Positions 35,128 to 40,410 of a DNA stretch of 64,000 bases are shown piece after piece. The position numbers and the translations under genes are program-made. The notes under the pieces were generated by a model, which was not told where the DNA came from, searched no databases, and saw only the letters and a list, made by a program, of their open reading frames with translations. This DNA is from Candidatus Cloacimonadales bacterium (lineage in GTDB: Bacteria; Cloacimonadota; Cloacimonadia; Cloacimonadales; DAONDQ01), in NCBI GenBank assembly GCA_963662275.1, contig OY759316.1:4288001-4352000 (forward strand), read 5' to 3'. Numbering within the stretch: position 1 is the first letter of the stretch; every line of letters starts with the position of its first letter.

Positions 35128-36988
35128 GAGACTGTTCATGAAGTTATTCATAATATTCAATAAGTTAGAAAGTAGCAAGTTGAAAAAAGTGGTCGAAACG
35201 GTCATAATTTAACATACCTTCCAGAATTGACAGATAAGCTCTGCTAAGGACACCAAATCACAAGTTAAGCTTTTTGACTAAAATTGAAAAACACGCGATT
35301 ATAAGTAATGTTTCGAAGCCGTTTCTGACTAAATGTGTAGTTAAAATCATATAAAATAGTTCTTTACAAGTTTTTTGCTATAGCTTCAATGGCATTTGTT
35401 ACCTGGTAACAAAAGGGAGGATATTATGACAAAAAAACACTCCAATTCAAGAAGCGGTAAGTGTTAGTCATGAAAGTAACCAATACCATGTAAGTATTAA
35501 CGTACCATTTTCATTCACTTTGCCTGAGACAACATCAAACCACAAGTTCTTAATAGCGTTTCTACGCTTATTAGTAGGAATAGGCGGAGACAACCTCCTT
35601 ACACTTCAGCAAATAGCTGATCTGTTTAACTACGCAGACCGCAGGAATGTACATAATTTCTGGCAAGAGTTTGAGCAGCATGGTCATGATATCCTGGCAT
35701 ATTTAAGCCGGAAAGTTGACCTGCTGGAGTGTATTCCTCAGATCGAGAATTTTGTTATCAATAACCTGCTTTTACCTTTAAATGTCATGTATCAGGAGTT
35801 CATCAGCCATCATGATTTTAAAATGTCCTATACCACTTTCTGCAAATATGCTTCTCAGGTCAATTCTCTGTCTGTAGTTAAGCAAGCTCAGAAGCTTCTT
35901 CTGAAAAAGACAGTAGGCGGTGATGCTGTACATCTGCTGAAACTGCTTGCCGGTCAGCAGAATACACCTGTTATCTGTGACAGACTCCTGGAACAAATGA
36001 AGACTGCTAAAGGCAATACATCCCATAGAACCGCCGATGCAAAGCCGTTCCATAGTCTGGAACGCAAGAACCTGTGTCTGCTGGTACATTACCTGGTTGG
36101 AAGCGGTATGAACTTCGAGACGATAGCTTTGCTGCTCAACACCTGTAAAGCTACAGTCTCAAATCTCTGGCATGAAATCGCTGACCTGCAGAGCCTGATT
36201 CTGAACTCAATCGGTAAGTGGAGCGGAAAGATCAGCATTGATGAGAAATATGTGAAGATCAAAGGTATTCCGTACTATGTCATCAGTATTGTTGATTTTG
36301 TGACTCACATCCCTCTGTTTTGTGAGTTGTATCCTGACACAAAGAAAGAATCATTCGAAGCATGTTTCAGAACCTTCAGACAGCTCTACAGGAAAGATCC
36401 AACCCTGATTGTCAGTGATGGCAGTAAATCGTTAGCAGTTGCAAGAAAAACAGTGTTTCCAAAAGTCCATTACCAACTCTGTAAGTTCCATAAGATACGA
36501 AATCTCTTCAAAAGAATCAGTCAATGTCATCTCCCTGAAGACAGGGACAAGTTCTTTAAGAAGAGGATTATGAAAGCTTTCCGAAGAGAAACGGCGGGCG
36601 GAAGGAAAAAGGGTATCGCAAGCCTGACAGCTATTACTCCCCCAACCGCCGCCGAATACATCAAAAGCAATATCATTAGTGATTGGAGACACCTCAGCAA
36701 AGGTTTGACTTCCAATGTCTCTGAACGCTGGAACCGCAAAATCAAGAAGGTGACATCCGGTAGATTTGGACTAAAATCTGAAGAAACCACCCGCAACCTT
36801 GTGTTTTCGCTTTGGTTCAAAGAACTGGTCGATAAAGGTCAACCAATCATGCGTCAGGAATCACTTTTAGCAAGTTTAAATATCTCCCGCATATGTCAAG
36901 AAAATGTGGATTGGTCGCACTTAGACCACTTTTTCTCTGTCACTACCAATAAGGCTGCGTAAAATGGAGGTTAATTTTGAACAGTCTC
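35128..36988 (+). mobile_element. Insertion sequence, Mutator-like/IS256 superfamily, 1861 bp
   Basis: TIR GAGACTGTTCA (35128-35138) and TGAACAGTCTC (36978-36988); 8-bp target duplication CGTACTGC at 35120-35127 and 36989-36996; contains a DDE transposase. Confidence 0.92.
35520..36962 (+). CDS. DDE transposase (Mutator-like, CxxH motif); true start probably ATG 35426 across a 1-nt frameshift
   Basis: SIDEKYV (D), IVSDG (D), QLCKFH (CxxH), TSNVSERWN (E). The frame is open back to 35430. Confidence 0.85.
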   Translation: MPETTSNHKFLIAFLRLLVGIGGDNLLTLQQIADLFNYADRRNVHNFWQEFEQHGHDILAYLSRKVDLLECIPQIENFVINNLLLPLNVMYQEFISHHDFKMSYTTFCKYASQVNSLSVVKQAQKLLLKKTVGGDAVHLLKLLAGQQNTPVICDRLLEQMKTAKGNTSHRTADAKPFHSLERKNLCLLVHYLVGSGMNFETIALLLNTCKATVSNLWHEIADLQSLILNSIGKWSGKISIDEKYVKIKGIPYYVISIVDFVTHIPLFCELYPDTKKESFEACFRTFRQLYRKDPTLIVSDGSKSLAVARKTVFPKVHYQLCKFHKIRNLFKRISQCHLPEDRDKFFKKRIMKAFRRETAGGRKKGIASLTAITPPTAAEYIKSNIISDWRHLSKGLTSNVSERWNRKIKKVTSGRFGLKSEETTRNLVFSLWFKELVDKGQPIMRQESLLASLNISRICQENVDWSHLDHFFSVTTNKAA

Positions 36989-37102
36989 CGTACTGCTAAA
37001 GTGCTGTAAATAATATAAAAACTTGACTGAATAACTTCAAATAATTTAAATCTCAATTATCAGTTAGCTTAAAAAGAATAATCCAAAAATCAGGGAGGAA
37101 TC

Positions 37103-37552
37103 GTGAAATTTATCTTTCTTGTCTGCCTCTTTTTTGTTCCGTTTCTGCTGTACTGTGATGTCATGTATGTTCATTTGACCAATGGAACAACAGCGGAATT
37201 CCAGGTACAGGATATTCAGCAGATCAATTTCAGCAATGTCTCCAATGATGATTGGGTCGCATTCATGCCCAAAGTACCTATTAAGTTTTTAACCAATTAT
37301 CCTAATCCTTTTAATCCCTCAACCATCATCAAGTTTGAATTGTCAGAACCGTATCAGACAGAGGTCTCAATTTTTAATATCAAGGGACAACTGGTGAAGG
37401 TTCTGGCAAAAGAGAACATGACAAAAGGTGTTCATGAATTGACTTGGAATGGTTTGAATGAATCCGGCAATACCTGTGCCTCGGGAACTTATATTTATAA
37501 GGTGAAATGCAATGACCAAATCAAAGTCAGCAAGATGCTGATGTTAAAATAG
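37103..37552 (+). CDS. Small secreted protein: signal peptide, short beta-module and FlgD-Ig/T9SS-like CTD
   Basis: GGGAGG RBS with GTG start; NYPNPFNPST...FNIKGQLVK.L...WNG...SGTY...KMLMLK; no catalytic domain. Confidence 0.85.
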   Translation: MKFIFLVCLFFVPFLLYCDVMYVHLTNGTTAEFQVQDIQQINFSNVSNDDWVAFMPKVPIKFLTNYPNPFNPSTIIKFELSEPYQTEVSIFNIKGQLVKVLAKENMTKGVHELTWNGLNESGNTCASGTYIYKVKCNDQIKVSKMLMLK

Positions 37553-37561
37553 GAGTATGTT

Positions 37562-38449
37562 ATGTATAAAATATTACTTATTAGCTGCCTTATCCTGCTG
37601 ACTTCTTTTCTTTTTGCCCAAGCTCAAATGAATGTGCACACAACAACCGGAACCAGCAACTTTAACCTGAATGAAATCACGGATATTACTTTTACCCAGG
37701 GAACAACTCCTGACCAGATGATACTTGTGCCGGGTGGAACTTTCAACAATTACACTTCAGATGTAACGGTATCATCTTTTTATATGGATAAATATGAGCT
37801 GACACAAACTGCCTACCAGGTAGTGATGGGAACAAATCCGTCTTATTATCCCAATGTTACCAATGGTCCAGTCGAACAGGTATCCTGGTTCAATGCCATC
37901 GAGTATTGCAACAGACGGAGCATCAATGAAGGACTGACTCCCTGCTATAGTTACAGCACGTATGGGACGAATCCAGCGACTTGGCCTGCCGGCTGGAACA
38001 CAGACTACCTCAATCATACCAATGTTTCCTGTAATTGGACTGCGAATGGCTACCGTCTGCCAACCGAAGCAGAATGGGAATTTGCCGCGCGGGGTGGTAA
38101 TCAGACACATAATTATACCTATAGCGGGAGTAATACGATAGGTGATGTGGCTTGGTATTGGGATAACTCCGGTAGTACTACTCACACCGTGGGTACCAAG
38201 ACAGCCAATGAATTAGGCTTGTTTGATATGAGTGGCAACGTCTGGGAGTGGAATTGGGACATCTATGGCTCTTACCCAAGTAGTGCACAGACCAACCCGC
38301 ATGGTGCTGTCAGCGGGCCTACCCGTATACTACGCGGTGGTTGCTGGAACAACGATGTCGACGGCTGCCCCGTTTTCGGTCGGGGCGGCAACTCTGCGAC
38401 TAGCAGCTACAATAATTTTGGCTTCCGTGTGTGTAGAAATTCCCTTTGA
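37562..38449 (+). CDS. Secreted FGE-sulfatase (C-type lectin fold) protein, probable DGR target
   Basis: MILVPGGTF, FYMDKYELTQ, PVEQVSW, YRLPTEAEWEFAARGG, NELGLFDMSGNVWEW, RGGCW...GFR at the C-terminus. Confidence 0.9.
   Translation: MYKILLISCLILLTSFLFAQAQMNVHTTTGTSNFNLNEITDITFTQGTTPDQMILVPGGTFNNYTSDVTVSSFYMDKYELTQTAYQVVMGTNPSYYPNVTNGPVEQVSWFNAIEYCNRRSINEGLTPCYSYSTYGTNPATWPAGWNTDYLNHTNVSCNWTANGYRLPTEAEWEFAARGGNQTHNYTYSGSNTIGDVAWYWDNSGSTTHTVGTKTANELGLFDMSGNVWEWNWDIYGSYPSSAQTNPHGAVSGPTRILRGGCWNNDVDGCPVFGRGGNSATSSYNNFGFRVCRNSL
38315..38449 (+). other. Candidate DGR variable region (VR)
   Basis: Last about 45 codons of the FGE gene; the 29 codons from 38342 have no A in third position and many NNC/NNT codons at positions that are AAC/AAT in DGR templates. 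Confidence 0.6.
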
Positions 38450-38490
38450 TTTTTGTTTTTTTCCCTTTTTGCAAAATGCTTGTAGCTTGC

Positions 38491-38585
38491 ATTGGTAATG
38501 TGTTGTAACTGACAATGGTATTGTCAGATTCCAGTTCGTAACATAAATTGGTAATTTGTTGTATTCGACAATGGTATTGTCGAAT
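38491..38585. repeat. Two 38-bp direct repeats, each ending in a hairpin
   Basis: ATTGGTAATGTGTTGTAACTGACAATGGTATTGTCAGA and ATTGGTAATTTGTTGTATTCGACAATGGTATTGTCGAA; the stems covary. Confidence 0.8.
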
Positions 38586-39014
38586 GTGCTTTTCTCAGTG
38601 ATTACCGTATAACAATATAGGACGATGTTAGGTGACGACTGCTTGAGCTGATAGGTTATGTTCTTTAGATCATGGTCTACTCACAAAAAAGCAACGTAAA
38701 CGAGGCTGCCACGATTCCTGAAGTAATCACCACCGGTGTGTAACATATGATTGTATCATGTTTTCCCCGATGGTTTGTAACCTCGGGGTCTTCCGGAGTT
38801 GCAGGGATACAATCCCAACAACAAAACAGCTTACAAAGCTATGTAACAGCAAAACAAAATTTACTATTCAAGATTAAGGTTGACACAGAATTGTCGTGGT
38901 AGGTTTATATAAAAAATGCGTTAGTAAGGTGAATAACCTATATTGCAATAAATTCATTGACGCTAATTGGTTTAACGAAATTATGTAATGTTAGATTTAA
39001 TACGAGGGAAGCGA

Positions 39015-39494
39015 ATGGCAATATTTTCTGAAGATCTGATGTCTATAGGTGTCAAAACTGACACAAAAACGGAACTCTTAATGTTAATGGTGAATATGAT
39101 GCATACCAGTCAGGCGATTGATTCAATCGAACGCTTTAAAAATGCTATCTTCGGAAGAGAAGAAATCATGAGTACGGGTATCGGAAGGGGCATAGCCTTA
39201 CCGCATGGTCGGGATATTTGTGTCAGGGAACTTAAAGTTGCAGTTTGTATACTTGATCAACCCCTTGATTTTGATGCATTAGACCAGGAACCAGTGCGAA
39301 TTGTCTTTATGATTGCAGTACCTCAATCAGCCGGTAAACAATATATGCGTGTATTAAGCAGCATTTCGCATTTCACTCGGGAGGAGGAGCATCGGCAAAT
39401 GATGCTTTCTTGCCTAACGACCCAAGAATTAAGCAACATGTTAAAAGAGATCGAAAATGCAATTCAAAAAGATTTGGCTACTTCTACTTCTTAG
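39015..39494 (+). CDS. PTS sugar/nitrogen EIIA component (PtsN-like)
   Basis: REEIMSTGIGRGIALPHGR phospho-His motif, DFDALDQEPV; start at ATG 39015 after GAGGG. Confidence 0.85.
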   Translation: MAIFSEDLMSIGVKTDTKTELLMLMVNMMHTSQAIDSIERFKNAIFGREEIMSTGIGRGIALPHGRDICVRELKVAVCILDQPLDFDALDQEPVRIVFMIAVPQSAGKQYMRVLSSISHFTREEEHRQMMLSCLTTQELSNMLKEIENAIQKDLATSTS

Positions 39495-40410
39495 TGTCCT
39501 CTTCATCTGCTCACTTCCTGCGGCAAATCAGAAAGCCGGAACAACCGGATTCAATTTTCTAAAAATCATCTATTCTGCTCGAGCTTCAGCTCTTGGCTCA
39601 GCATTTTCGGCAATGGACAAAGATGCTGACGGAATGTTTTATAACCCCGGCAGTTTAGTGACATTACAGGAACGACAGTTTAAAACTACTTTTATGAATT
39701 ATCTATCTGGATATCAAGGTGGTTCTGTCGTCTATGGTACGAAAGTAAATGCGCAAACAGCTTATGGTTTCTATATCTCATATCTGCAAAGTGATGACAT
39801 CGAAAAAACATTAGTTACTTCAACGGGTGATTTTGCCGGTACCGATGGTACTTTCGGTTCATCGGATATGGTTGCGGGAGCAGTGGTTTCAAAGCATCTT
39901 AGTGATATGGTGCAGGCAGGTTTTGCCTTAAAGTATGTACGGGAGAGTATTGATACTTATTCAGCCTCCGGGGTAGCATTAGATATTGGCTTTCAGCACC
40001 AGCCTGTTAATCCCAAAGTTAGAGTTGGCATAGCGATTCGTAATCTCGGTGCCCAATTGACTTACTTTACGGATAGCAAGTATCATGAAAAATTACCTGT
40101 AGTGATAAATGGTGGCATTAAATATGCTTTTAAACCTAACTTCCAGGGGATGTTTGAGATCGTTAGTCCTGTAAGTCAGAATTTATCAGCCCTACTCGGT
40201 GCAGAATATCAATATAATGATCAGTTTACCGGTCGGATAGGTTATAAGACAAATGCCTCTGATTGGAAGAACGGAGGTTCTTTGGAAATCCTTTCAGGTA
40301 TATCAGCCGGAGTTGGATTTAATTGGCATTATTTGGGATTAGATTATGCCTATATTTCTTATGGAGATTTAGGATCGGTAAACCAAATATCTCTTCGTTA
40401 TCGCTTCTAA
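39457..40410 (+). CDS. PorV/PorQ (UPF0164)-family outer-membrane beta-barrel
   Basis: Signal peptide; FLKI..SARASALGSAF...FYNPGSL; DYAY...GDLG...SLRYRF with terminal Phe. Confidence 0.8.
   Translation: MQFKKIWLLLLLSVLFICSLPAANQKAGTTGFNFLKIIYSARASALGSAFSAMDKDADGMFYNPGSLVTLQERQFKTTFMNYLSGYQGGSVVYGTKVNAQTAYGFYISYLQSDDIEKTLVTSTGDFAGTDGTFGSSDMVAGAVVSKHLSDMVQAGFALKYVRESIDTYSASGVALDIGFQHQPVNPKVRVGIAIRNLGAQLTYFTDSKYHEKLPVVINGGIKYAFKPNFQGMFEIVSPVSQNLSALLGAEYQYNDQFTGRIGYKTNASDWKNGGSLEILSGISAGVGFNWHYLGLDYAYISYGDLGSVNQISLRYRF

Follow-up and report, generated by a model that had tools for sequence, protein, structure and literature searches.

This report concerns two adjacent genes in a window of 64,000 nucleotides from the chromosome of a Candidatus Cloacimonadales bacterium (assembly GCA_963662275.1, contig OY759316.1, positions 4,288,001 to 4,352,000, forward strand). 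The products of these genes, gene 1 and gene 2, begin with a similar short N-terminal unit and divide between them a type IX secretion system (T9SS) C-terminal sorting domain (CTD) and a cargo domain (Table 1). A 9-nt spacer separates the genes and a Shine-Dalgarno-like motif precedes each of them. According to family searches, gene 1 encodes a T9SS type A CTD protein: its sorting domain, located at the C-terminal end, scored above the curated cut-offs of TIGR04183 (45 bits; cut-off 23) and PF18962 (30.3 bits; cut-off 27), with matches within residues 66-145 of 149. No passenger domain was found between the signal peptide and the CTD of this protein, where just ∼45 residues, comprising the unit and a linker and matching no family, are located. 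The product of gene 2 matched the FGE-sulfatase family, PF03781, at 143.4 bits (cut-off 23.3) in a domain extending to the C-terminus, and matched no CTD family of type A, B or C, even at E ≤ 10. The open reading frames (ORFs) and the three family models agree with the original prediction, which had described gene 1 as a module plus CTD and gene 2, 9 nt away, as the same module plus an FGE-type domain without CTD. We refer to the product of gene 1 as the mini CTD protein or adaptor, and to that of gene 2 as the tail-less cargo.

Table 1. Features of the gene pair and of related pairs in the same genome. Positions are those of the window unless marked as genome positions.
Feature	Position	Strand	Basis or remark
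Shine-Dalgarno-like AGGGAGG	37092..37098	+	4 nt before the GTG start of gene 1; read off the sequence
Gene 1, mini CTD protein (adaptor), 149 aa	37103..37552 incl. stop	+	GTG start; TIGR04183 and PF18962
Gene 1 signal peptide, residues 1-18	37103..37156	+	hydrophobic N-terminus; probable cleavage site from orthologue alignment
Gene 1 N-terminal unit, residues 19-44, DVMYVHLTNGTTAEFQVQDIQQINFS	37157..37234	+	profiles and unit alignment
Gene 1 linker, residues 45-64	37235..37294	+	conserved among orthologous mini CTD proteins (alignment)
Gene 1 T9SS type A C-terminal sorting domain, residues 65-149	37295..37549	+	family matches and fold of a related adaptor
Gene 2, tail-less cargo, 295 aa	37562..38449 incl. 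stop	+	ATG start; PF03781, no CTD
Gene 2 N-terminal unit, residues 22-46, QMNVHTTTGTSNFNLNEITDITFTQ, right behind the signal peptide	37625..37699	+	profiles and alignment
Gene 2 FGE-sulfatase (C-type-lectin-like) domain, residues 51-291	37712..38434	+	PF03781
Gene 2 C-terminal stretch, residues 256-288, hypervariable among paralogues, codon pattern like that of a diversity-generating retroelement	38327..38425	+	paralogue comparison
Terminator-like hairpin with T-rich tail, downstream of gene 2	38560..38588	+	
Earlier copy of the hairpin core downstream of gene 2	~38508-38526		
Second-class pair 1, CTD-only + FGE-sulfatase	3037296-3037691 with 3036192-3037280 (genome)	-	
Second-class pair 2, CTD-only + FGE-sulfatase	3212718-3213122 with 3211592-3212749 (genome)	-	
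Second-class pair 3, CTD-only + FGE-sulfatase	4248490-4249257 with 4247351-4248478 (genome)	-	

The genome, a complete 4.38-Mb single-contig Cloacimonadota chromosome, contains five copies of the two-gene cassette. The five gene-1 copies are 85-89% identical in amino-acid sequence, and each is located 9-10 nt upstream of its own gene-2 copy. Homology among the copies is confined to both genes and short flanks (about 37017/37137-38531/38565 in the window), and the copies sit in five different neighbourhoods. The cassette is duplicated as a whole. A sixth unit-bearing FGE-sulfatase gene (genome 457565) has no adaptor adjoining it. The adaptor is under purifying selection: the ratio of nonsynonymous to synonymous substitution rates (dN/dS) averaged 0.08 over the 10 pairs of gene-1 copies; taken separately, the unit gave 0.10, the linker 0.06 and the CTD 0.05. 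With a dS of about 0.8, these copies are old.

The same genome encodes the translocon and the sortase of the T9SS. One 2090-aa frame matched SprA twice, at 282.6 and 160.1 bits (combined score 456.3 bits; cut-off 200), and PorU was matched at 582.4 bits (cut-off 420). In all, 243 ORFs of this genome carry a C-terminal CTD of the type found in gene 1.

The shared N-terminal unit and its distribution

To evaluate the similarity of the two N-terminal stretches, we compared them directly and as profiles. Behind the leaders, 10 of the 23 aligned columns are identical, the value given in the original prediction. When the five gene-2 units were searched as a profile against the 13,930 ORFs of this genome, four of the five gene-1 copies were recovered at E values of 0.009-0.083, as the top matches outside the gene-2 family itself; the fifth scored E 0.76. 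The reverse profile, built from the gene-1 unit, recovered gene-2 copies at E values of 0.019, 0.084 and 7, with one unrelated ORF ranking between them at 0.022. Judged from this genome alone, the sequence similarity is borderline. A profile made from the ten units of this genome alone nevertheless matched both the mini CTD proteins and the downstream cargo of related genomes, right after the signal peptide. Because the mini CTD and cargo proteins of the relatives both carry the unit, its similarity between the partners is beyond chance. Two more apparent matches in this genome (910150 and 4028351) were rejected as wrong-frame noise.

Neither Pfam nor NCBIfam contained a model for the unit. 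The MiiA motif (NF053582, ‘MiiA motif-containing surface protein’) was considered as a name for it and rejected: one of 20 unit-bearing proteins matched this model, partially and at 16.5 bits (cut-off 24), and genes 1 and 2 did not match it at E ≤ 10. A word-based protein search with the unit and linker of gene 1, an insensitive method, returned four clusters of near-length proteins, all of them close relatives, and no longer proteins. On sequence grounds, the unit appears to represent an undescribed small domain family that is apparently widespread.

To follow the unit in relatives, we sampled 151 genomes of the same order. The unit was matched in 38 of them, and the 93 matches fell into 56 clusters. 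Of these, 32 held at least two unit-bearing genes located on one strand within 3 kb, and a short gene (reading frame of 149-240 aa) came first in 31 of the 32. At the loci inspected, the first gene encoded a leader, one or two units (three in L074), the conserved linker and a CTD; the next gene encoded a leader, the unit and a cargo domain, without CTD. The cargo differed by lineage and included FGE-sulfatase, Laminin_G_3, CpeT/CpcT, DOMON, PD40 propeller and Big_1-like domains as well as CHB_HEX_C with FGE-sulfatase. At three loci (L019, L026 and L052), two unit-bearing cargo genes stand in a row behind one adaptor. Unit-bearing proteins of a DUF4886-like (SGNH-type) kind were usually encoded by orphan genes (L048, L049, L066, L068, L070 and L071).

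Among the 24 clusters with a single match, seven proved to be paired, six of them with adaptor units below the threshold. In L074, the single match was the adaptor itself, and its cargo scored just below threshold. Of the other single clusters, two were located at contig ends and three were false positives, while two follow a large CTD protein (>670 aa) rather than a mini one (L064:2485-4500(-) and L072:1-2151(+)), the start of this large protein lying beyond the DNA analysed. The original prediction had proposed to check whether the module co-occurs on CTD-only and lectin-type proteins; the profile located the unit on CTD-only mini proteins or tail-less cargo, paired in the 32 multi-gene clusters and the seven single ones.

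We then aligned 25 units and searched a database of 1.84 billion proteins at E ≤ 0.001, which yielded 86 representatives. The first unit begins at residue 17-30 in 73 of the 86, as counted from the listed positions. Eight representatives bear a CTD; these are 151-211 aa long and contain no other domain. A Pfam domain of cargo type is present in about 40, all of which lack a CTD. The cargo domains comprised 13 Laminin_G_3, eight Fib_succ_major and four FGE-sulfatase domains together with single cases of CpeT, Kelch, LVIVD, Beta_helix, CBM96, Cthe_2159 and others. The remaining representatives had no Pfam match, many being fragments, or were likely false positives (P0128, P0131 and P0136). Cargo and CTD were thus mutually exclusive on unit-bearing proteins: none of the proteins examined, the 86 representatives included, joined unit, cargo and CTD.

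The pair was also found outside Cloacimonadota. In a metagenome-assembled genome (MAG) of Bacteroidaceae, a 159-aa gene encoding a leader, unit-like repeats and a CTD has a 4-nt overlap with the start of a 253-aa gene. The product of the latter consists of a leader, the unit and a domain that we read as FISUMP-like, which had no Pfam or NCBIfam match. In the order to which this MAG belongs, the unit was found in 7 of 151 genomes, with eight places matched, and a mini CTD protein followed by unit-bearing cargo (FISUMP-like or other) was present in all seven of the eight places that were examined. Because the loci of this order show the mini CTD gene and then the unit-bearing cargo gene, the pair layout is present in both Cloacimonadota and Bacteroidota.

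Variable C-termini and diversity-generating retroelements

The C-terminal stretch of gene 2, residues 256-288, differs from the rest of the protein in how it varies. Among the three closest paralogues, amino-acid identity was 0.40 in this stretch versus 0.86 in the body. Differences per site amounted to 0.39 at codon positions 1 and 2 versus 0.18 at position 3, the corresponding values for the body being 0.10 versus 0.36. This variation resembles the pattern that a diversity-generating retroelement (DGR) would leave by mutagenesis of AAC-type codons. A 272-nt contig over 38248-38519 was recovered without difference in all four DNA runs (from two studies, one possibly of the source sample); paralogues confounded the rest of 36990-38600. 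The identical contig is compatible with diversification because contigs drop rare variants.

We searched this genome for the other parts of a DGR. A genome-wide ungapped scan that tolerated only adenine-linked mismatches found no template repeat for the six unit-bearing FGE-sulfatase genes. Its matches were the queried genes, other FGE-sulfatase paralogues (24-25 non-adenine mismatches per 120 nt in each) and an adenine-rich window at 1561927-1562046 with 25 non-adenine and 61 adenine mismatches. No DGR reverse transcriptase (RT) was identified among the 18 PF00078 matches in this genome. Eleven of these matches represent one multi-copy element with frames of 412-465 aa; over 2.1 kb, one copy shares 94-95% identity with the other ten. 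Six further matches have 444-aa frames and identical scores, and we read them as a second multi-copy mobile family. Both families, present at 17 places (e.g., 2211519-2212145 and 735338-735958), are read as candidate group II introns. An 893-aa RT-containing ORF (3092718-3095399) and the neighbouring 107-aa ORF are possibly an RT-Cas1 fusion with Cas2.

By contrast, metagenome loci of the FGE-sulfatase family of gene 2 include true DGR targets. Applied to 80 such loci, the same kind of scan detected a template repeat 2-3 kb downstream in 12, the mismatches per 120 nt numbering 2-6 at non-adenine and 18-26 at adenine positions. Analyzed domain by domain, L107:6874-11050 contains a CTD-only protein, an FGE-sulfatase target, an HRDC protein, bAvd, a reverse transcriptase (93 bits) and a template repeat. 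Complete DGR cassettes are also present in L106, L127, L134, L138, L145, L152, L154 and L128. The CTD gene ends 10-12 nt before the target in nine of the ten DGR loci in which the start of the target is in view.

The separation of FGE-sulfatase domain and CTD extends beyond the DGR loci. None of the 95 FGE-sulfatase ORFs in the metagenome loci, which contain 40 CTD ORFs, and none of the 32 in this genome carries its own CTD, in line with the original prediction that the variable FGE-type domain is kept apart from the CTD. A CTD gene is located directly upstream of 24 of 83 FGE-sulfatase ORFs in the metagenome loci and of 9 of 32 in this genome. The accompanying rationale, that a DGR-varied C-terminus competes with a C-terminal sorting signal for the same position, held in part: nine of the ten assessable DGR targets are preceded by a CTD-only gene, but this genome has neither a DGR reverse transcriptase nor a template repeat, and most unit-bearing cargo is not of the DGR type. 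Because the latter includes LamG, FISUMP, CpeT, DOMON and propeller proteins, a clash between variable C-terminus and tag cannot generally explain the split. The DGR conflict would be just one use of a more general system.

This genome also contains a second class of pair, in which a CTD-only protein (131, 134 or 255 aa) is encoded directly upstream of an FGE-sulfatase gene with an N-terminal Ig-like region, and in which no shared unit was detectable (Table 1). The layout of these pairs is that of the true DGR cassettes in the metagenome relatives. A 3325-aa ORF (genome 2907597-2917574, +) contains many tandem FGE-sulfatase domains and no CTD. The 15-base core of the hairpins 3′ of gene 2, GACAATGGTATTGTC, occurs 14 times in the genome, 10 of these within 250 nt downstream of seven FGE-sulfatase ORFs. 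The hairpins may serve as a terminator, constitute a small repeat element or act as the target-site hairpin of a DGR; one of those after gene 2 also fits an intrinsic terminator.

A sorting tag possibly supplied in trans

We consider the gene pair to encode a two-part type IX secretion cargo, in which a sorting and anchoring tag would be supplied in trans through pairing of the units; in our estimation, this proposal has about an even chance of being right. Each protein would cross the inner membrane by means of its own signal peptide. The ∼25-residue unit, predicted to form three short β-strands at the mature N-terminus, would pair the cargo with the mini protein, whose type A CTD would then lead the pair through the SprA translocon. 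PorU would cut off the CTD and attach the ∼45-residue stub of unit and linker to the cell surface, by analogy with Porphyromonas, since ordinary type A cargo is established to be so processed there. The cargo would hang by its N-terminus from the stub and its C-terminal ligand-binding face would be free. In the case of the FGE-sulfatase proteins, whose C-terminal ∼35 residues are taken to be the DGR-diversified binding site in relatives, the split would remove the clash with a C-terminal sorting tag. The same plug would serve many other binding domains. A broader version of this proposal, for which we judge the chances to be a little short of even, is a general ‘tail in trans’ branch of the T9SS in the Fibrobacterota-Chlorobiota-Bacteroidota superphylum. 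This branch would handle tail-less binding proteins, DGR-diversified lectins among them, with a lipid-anchored stub as a socket serving several heads. The comparisons lend partial support to the idea of the original prediction that the tag is supplied in trans.

To investigate the unit further, we used structure predictions. In an AlphaFold2 model of a related adaptor with two units, the unit region formed six strands with predicted local distance difference test (pLDDT) scores of about 88-92; the linker was a short low-confidence helix and the CTD was confident. The model of gene 2 had a mean pLDDT of 83, with a confident FGE-sulfatase domain and scores of 46-62 for its lone unit. The low-scoring lone unit is suggestive of a unit that needs a second one to fold. 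A complex prediction for mature gene 2 (residues 22-295) and mature gene 1 (19-149), provided as alignments, scored 0.09 versus a mark of 0.32 and, run without controls, is neutral on binding. A Foldseek comparison of the related adaptor model with the PDB matched the CTD-like part only (C-terminal parts of PorU and PorZ; FlgD) and returned nothing for the unit. Neighbours of the two-unit region in the ESM Atlas, with template modelling (TM) scores of 0.70-0.76 over ∼55-64 residues, are leads only; they are small Por_Secre_tail proteins, and FISUMP, pectate-lyase, endonuclease and Lcl_C proteins, of Bacteroidota.

Several observations weigh against sorting in trans. We infer the mutual binding of the units, and with it export and anchoring in trans, from sequence patterns, and to our knowledge T9SS export of a non-covalent partner has never been shown. 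The pLDDT contrast is suggestive and may reflect alignment depth, since the unit is present in only about one third of the gene-2 alignment rows. Unit numbers have no fixed sum, with one to three in the adaptor and one to three in the cargo, so simple one-to-one complementation would not be the whole story. Of some 53 true clusters, about 8-10 consist of orphan cargo genes without a neighbouring adaptor, mostly encoding DUF4886-like or LamG proteins, plus one FGE-sulfatase copy in this genome. At the threshold used, no adaptor was detected in G118 (80% complete) or G131 (99% complete). Finally, when the N-terminal parts of the CTD-only partners in the DGR cassettes were compared with those of their FGE-sulfatase targets, no similarity or shared unit was detectable. 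Because these pairs lack a detectable shared unit, the unit is not the sole possible link and the neighbourhood of the genes may mean something else. The orphan genes, like the loci with two cargo genes in a row, would fit the ‘one adaptor, many heads’ arrangement of the original prediction.

The free variation in copy number in both partners, the orphan cargo genes and the position of the unit, always at the extreme N-terminus behind the signal peptide, would also be expected if the unit were a common address tag. Such a tag would bind some third partner, for instance a PorV/PorQ-like outer-membrane protein, a surface glycan or the translocon, and the two genes would adjoin as both products act at one site. 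A PorV/PorQ family gene is indeed present 1 kb downstream in the window, but none was seen beside the other four cassette copies when their ORF lists were inspected by eye. We regard an address tag as unlikely: it leaves unexplained the existence and conservation of a protein consisting of unit and CTD only, the location of this mini CTD protein directly upstream of the cargo in most clusters, and the finding that unit-bearing cargo never has its own CTD. All of the evidence for a functional pair would apply equally if the adaptor were exported by the T9SS and anchored while the cargo reached the outside by another route, such as type II secretion, vesicles or lysis, and then plugged onto the stub; orphan cargo and two-cargo loci would fit such a shared surface dock. 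However, the cargo has no recognizable signal for crossing the outer membrane, and the tight coupling of the genes, with a 9-nt spacer here and overlapping stop and start codons in L080, suggests assembly at synthesis. Docking after separate export is, in our view, improbable.

Two further explanations dispense with a carrier altogether. It is scarcely credible that the genes have no joint function, with the adaptor simply accompanying its neighbour, either as what is left of a unit-cargo-CTD gene after loss of the central part or as a copy arising from a 5′ duplication. In favour of this, the two genes resemble each other at their 5′ ends, and the signal peptide of the sixth unit-bearing FGE-sulfatase begins like that of gene 1. 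Against this, dN/dS is 0.08 at a dS of about 0.8, the layout is shared by families of the order and by a second phylum, and no full-length ancestor-like form occurs among the 86 representatives; the word-based search, which found no longer proteins with unit and linker, is weak evidence to the same effect. Nor do genes 1 and 2 look like a broken single gene, an outcome that the original prediction had allowed for: separate signal peptides and ribosome-binding sites serve the two, and the searches revealed no fused form. We consider it very improbable that the mini CTD protein regulates or senses T9SS load instead of being a carrier. The precedent is PorA of Porphyromonas gingivalis, a 246-aa protein which, according to the available part of the source, binds the sensor kinase PorY through its CTD and is a ligand of PorXY (PMC12152298). 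Going by that description only, PorA resembles the mini protein as a small secreted protein with the CTD as its main feature, neither enzyme nor adhesin. It differs in having an N-terminal part of ∼144 residues and in signalling to PorXY, and the available part does not describe it as paired with tail-less cargo or a unit-sharing neighbour. A regulator would sit poorly with five copies per genome, each tied to its own cargo gene, and with a mini protein that has the unit in common with its neighbour while the partner cargo changes between lineages.

Sorting in trans, as proposed here, has counterparts in known systems. In canonical type A sorting, the PorU sortase removes the CTD and the cargo is linked to anionic lipopolysaccharide. 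Gene 1 has a type A CTD of this kind (TIGR04183/PF18962), and SprA and PorU are encoded in the genome. In the canonical system, however, passenger and CTD form one polypeptide, whereas here a CTD protein with no passenger beyond ∼45 residues accompanies a passenger-like protein without CTD. In the ‘hitchhiker’ export of the twin-arginine translocation (Tat) pathway, a subunit without signal peptide is exported while bound to a signal-bearing partner. The likeness lies in a sorting signal that a co-encoded partner provides in trans for a folded protein; membrane, machinery and signal differ, and here the signal-bearing partner would be a docking unit and afterwards a surface anchor. In cellulosomes, dockerin-bearing enzymes plug onto the cohesins of an anchored scaffoldin. 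As in the proposed system, a small conserved plug on varied cargo meets an anchored holding partner. There is no sequence relationship to cohesins and dockerins, and in the present case both partners carry the same kind of unit, the setting is Gram-negative and T9SS-dependent, and binding is postulated.

DGR variable proteins with a C-terminal C-type-lectin/FGE-sulfatase fold include TvpA of Treponema and Mtd of a phage. Gene 2 shares the fold family (PF03781) and has ∼33 C-terminal residues with a DGR-like pattern, and its metagenome relatives are true targets with template repeat and RT. Unlike the TvpA/Mtd type, it resides in a genome without RT or template repeat, and attachment by a shared N-terminal unit to a CTD-only protein is undescribed in the literature searched. 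T9SS type B CTD proteins, as described in the available part of PMC9143113, occur with co-encoded PorP/SprF-like outer-membrane partners, so that surface anchorage of the cargo likewise depends on the product of a neighbouring gene. According to that part of the source, the type B cargo has its own CTD and is accompanied by a barrel, unlike the tail-less cargo here, which is accompanied by a soluble mini CTD protein of type A. A full-text search of openly readable literature, with subscription-only papers outside its reach, returned no account of sorting domains provided in trans, of adaptors of the CTD-only kind or of a connection between DGRs and the T9SS, in agreement with the original prediction, whose author knew of none.

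The available part of PMC11285876 states that T9SS cargoes must have a CTD, and the T9SS is currently described as requiring the sorting domain on the cargo. A carrier acting in trans, if real, would change the prediction of T9SS substrates because tail-less proteins encoded beside mini CTD genes would then be classed among them. The way in which the C-terminally hypervariable DGR lectins of Cloacimonadota reach the surface would likewise be explained, and a new small domain family would be defined. In addition, surface display in Bacteroidota would gain a compact tag pair of natural origin, and the arrangement would amount to a natural plug-and-display system. Because the layout is present in Bacteroidales relatives, the hypothesis is directly testable.

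Sequences flanking the cassette

Just upstream of the cassette is an insertion sequence (IS) element of ∼1.86 kb (window 35128-36988; ORF 35520..36962), of which the genome contains ∼40 copies, most of them 98-100% identical. Its 480-aa transposase gave sub-threshold to borderline matches to the MULE, Mutator and IS256 families. The element was rejected as part of the cassette, as it is an insertion outside the duplicated segment. On the 3′ side, the PorV/PorQ family outer-membrane protein gene (window 39457..40410, +; NF033709 at 153.5 bits, cut-off 90) overlaps the end of a gene for an EIIA-like protein of the phosphotransferase system (window 38988-39494, +).

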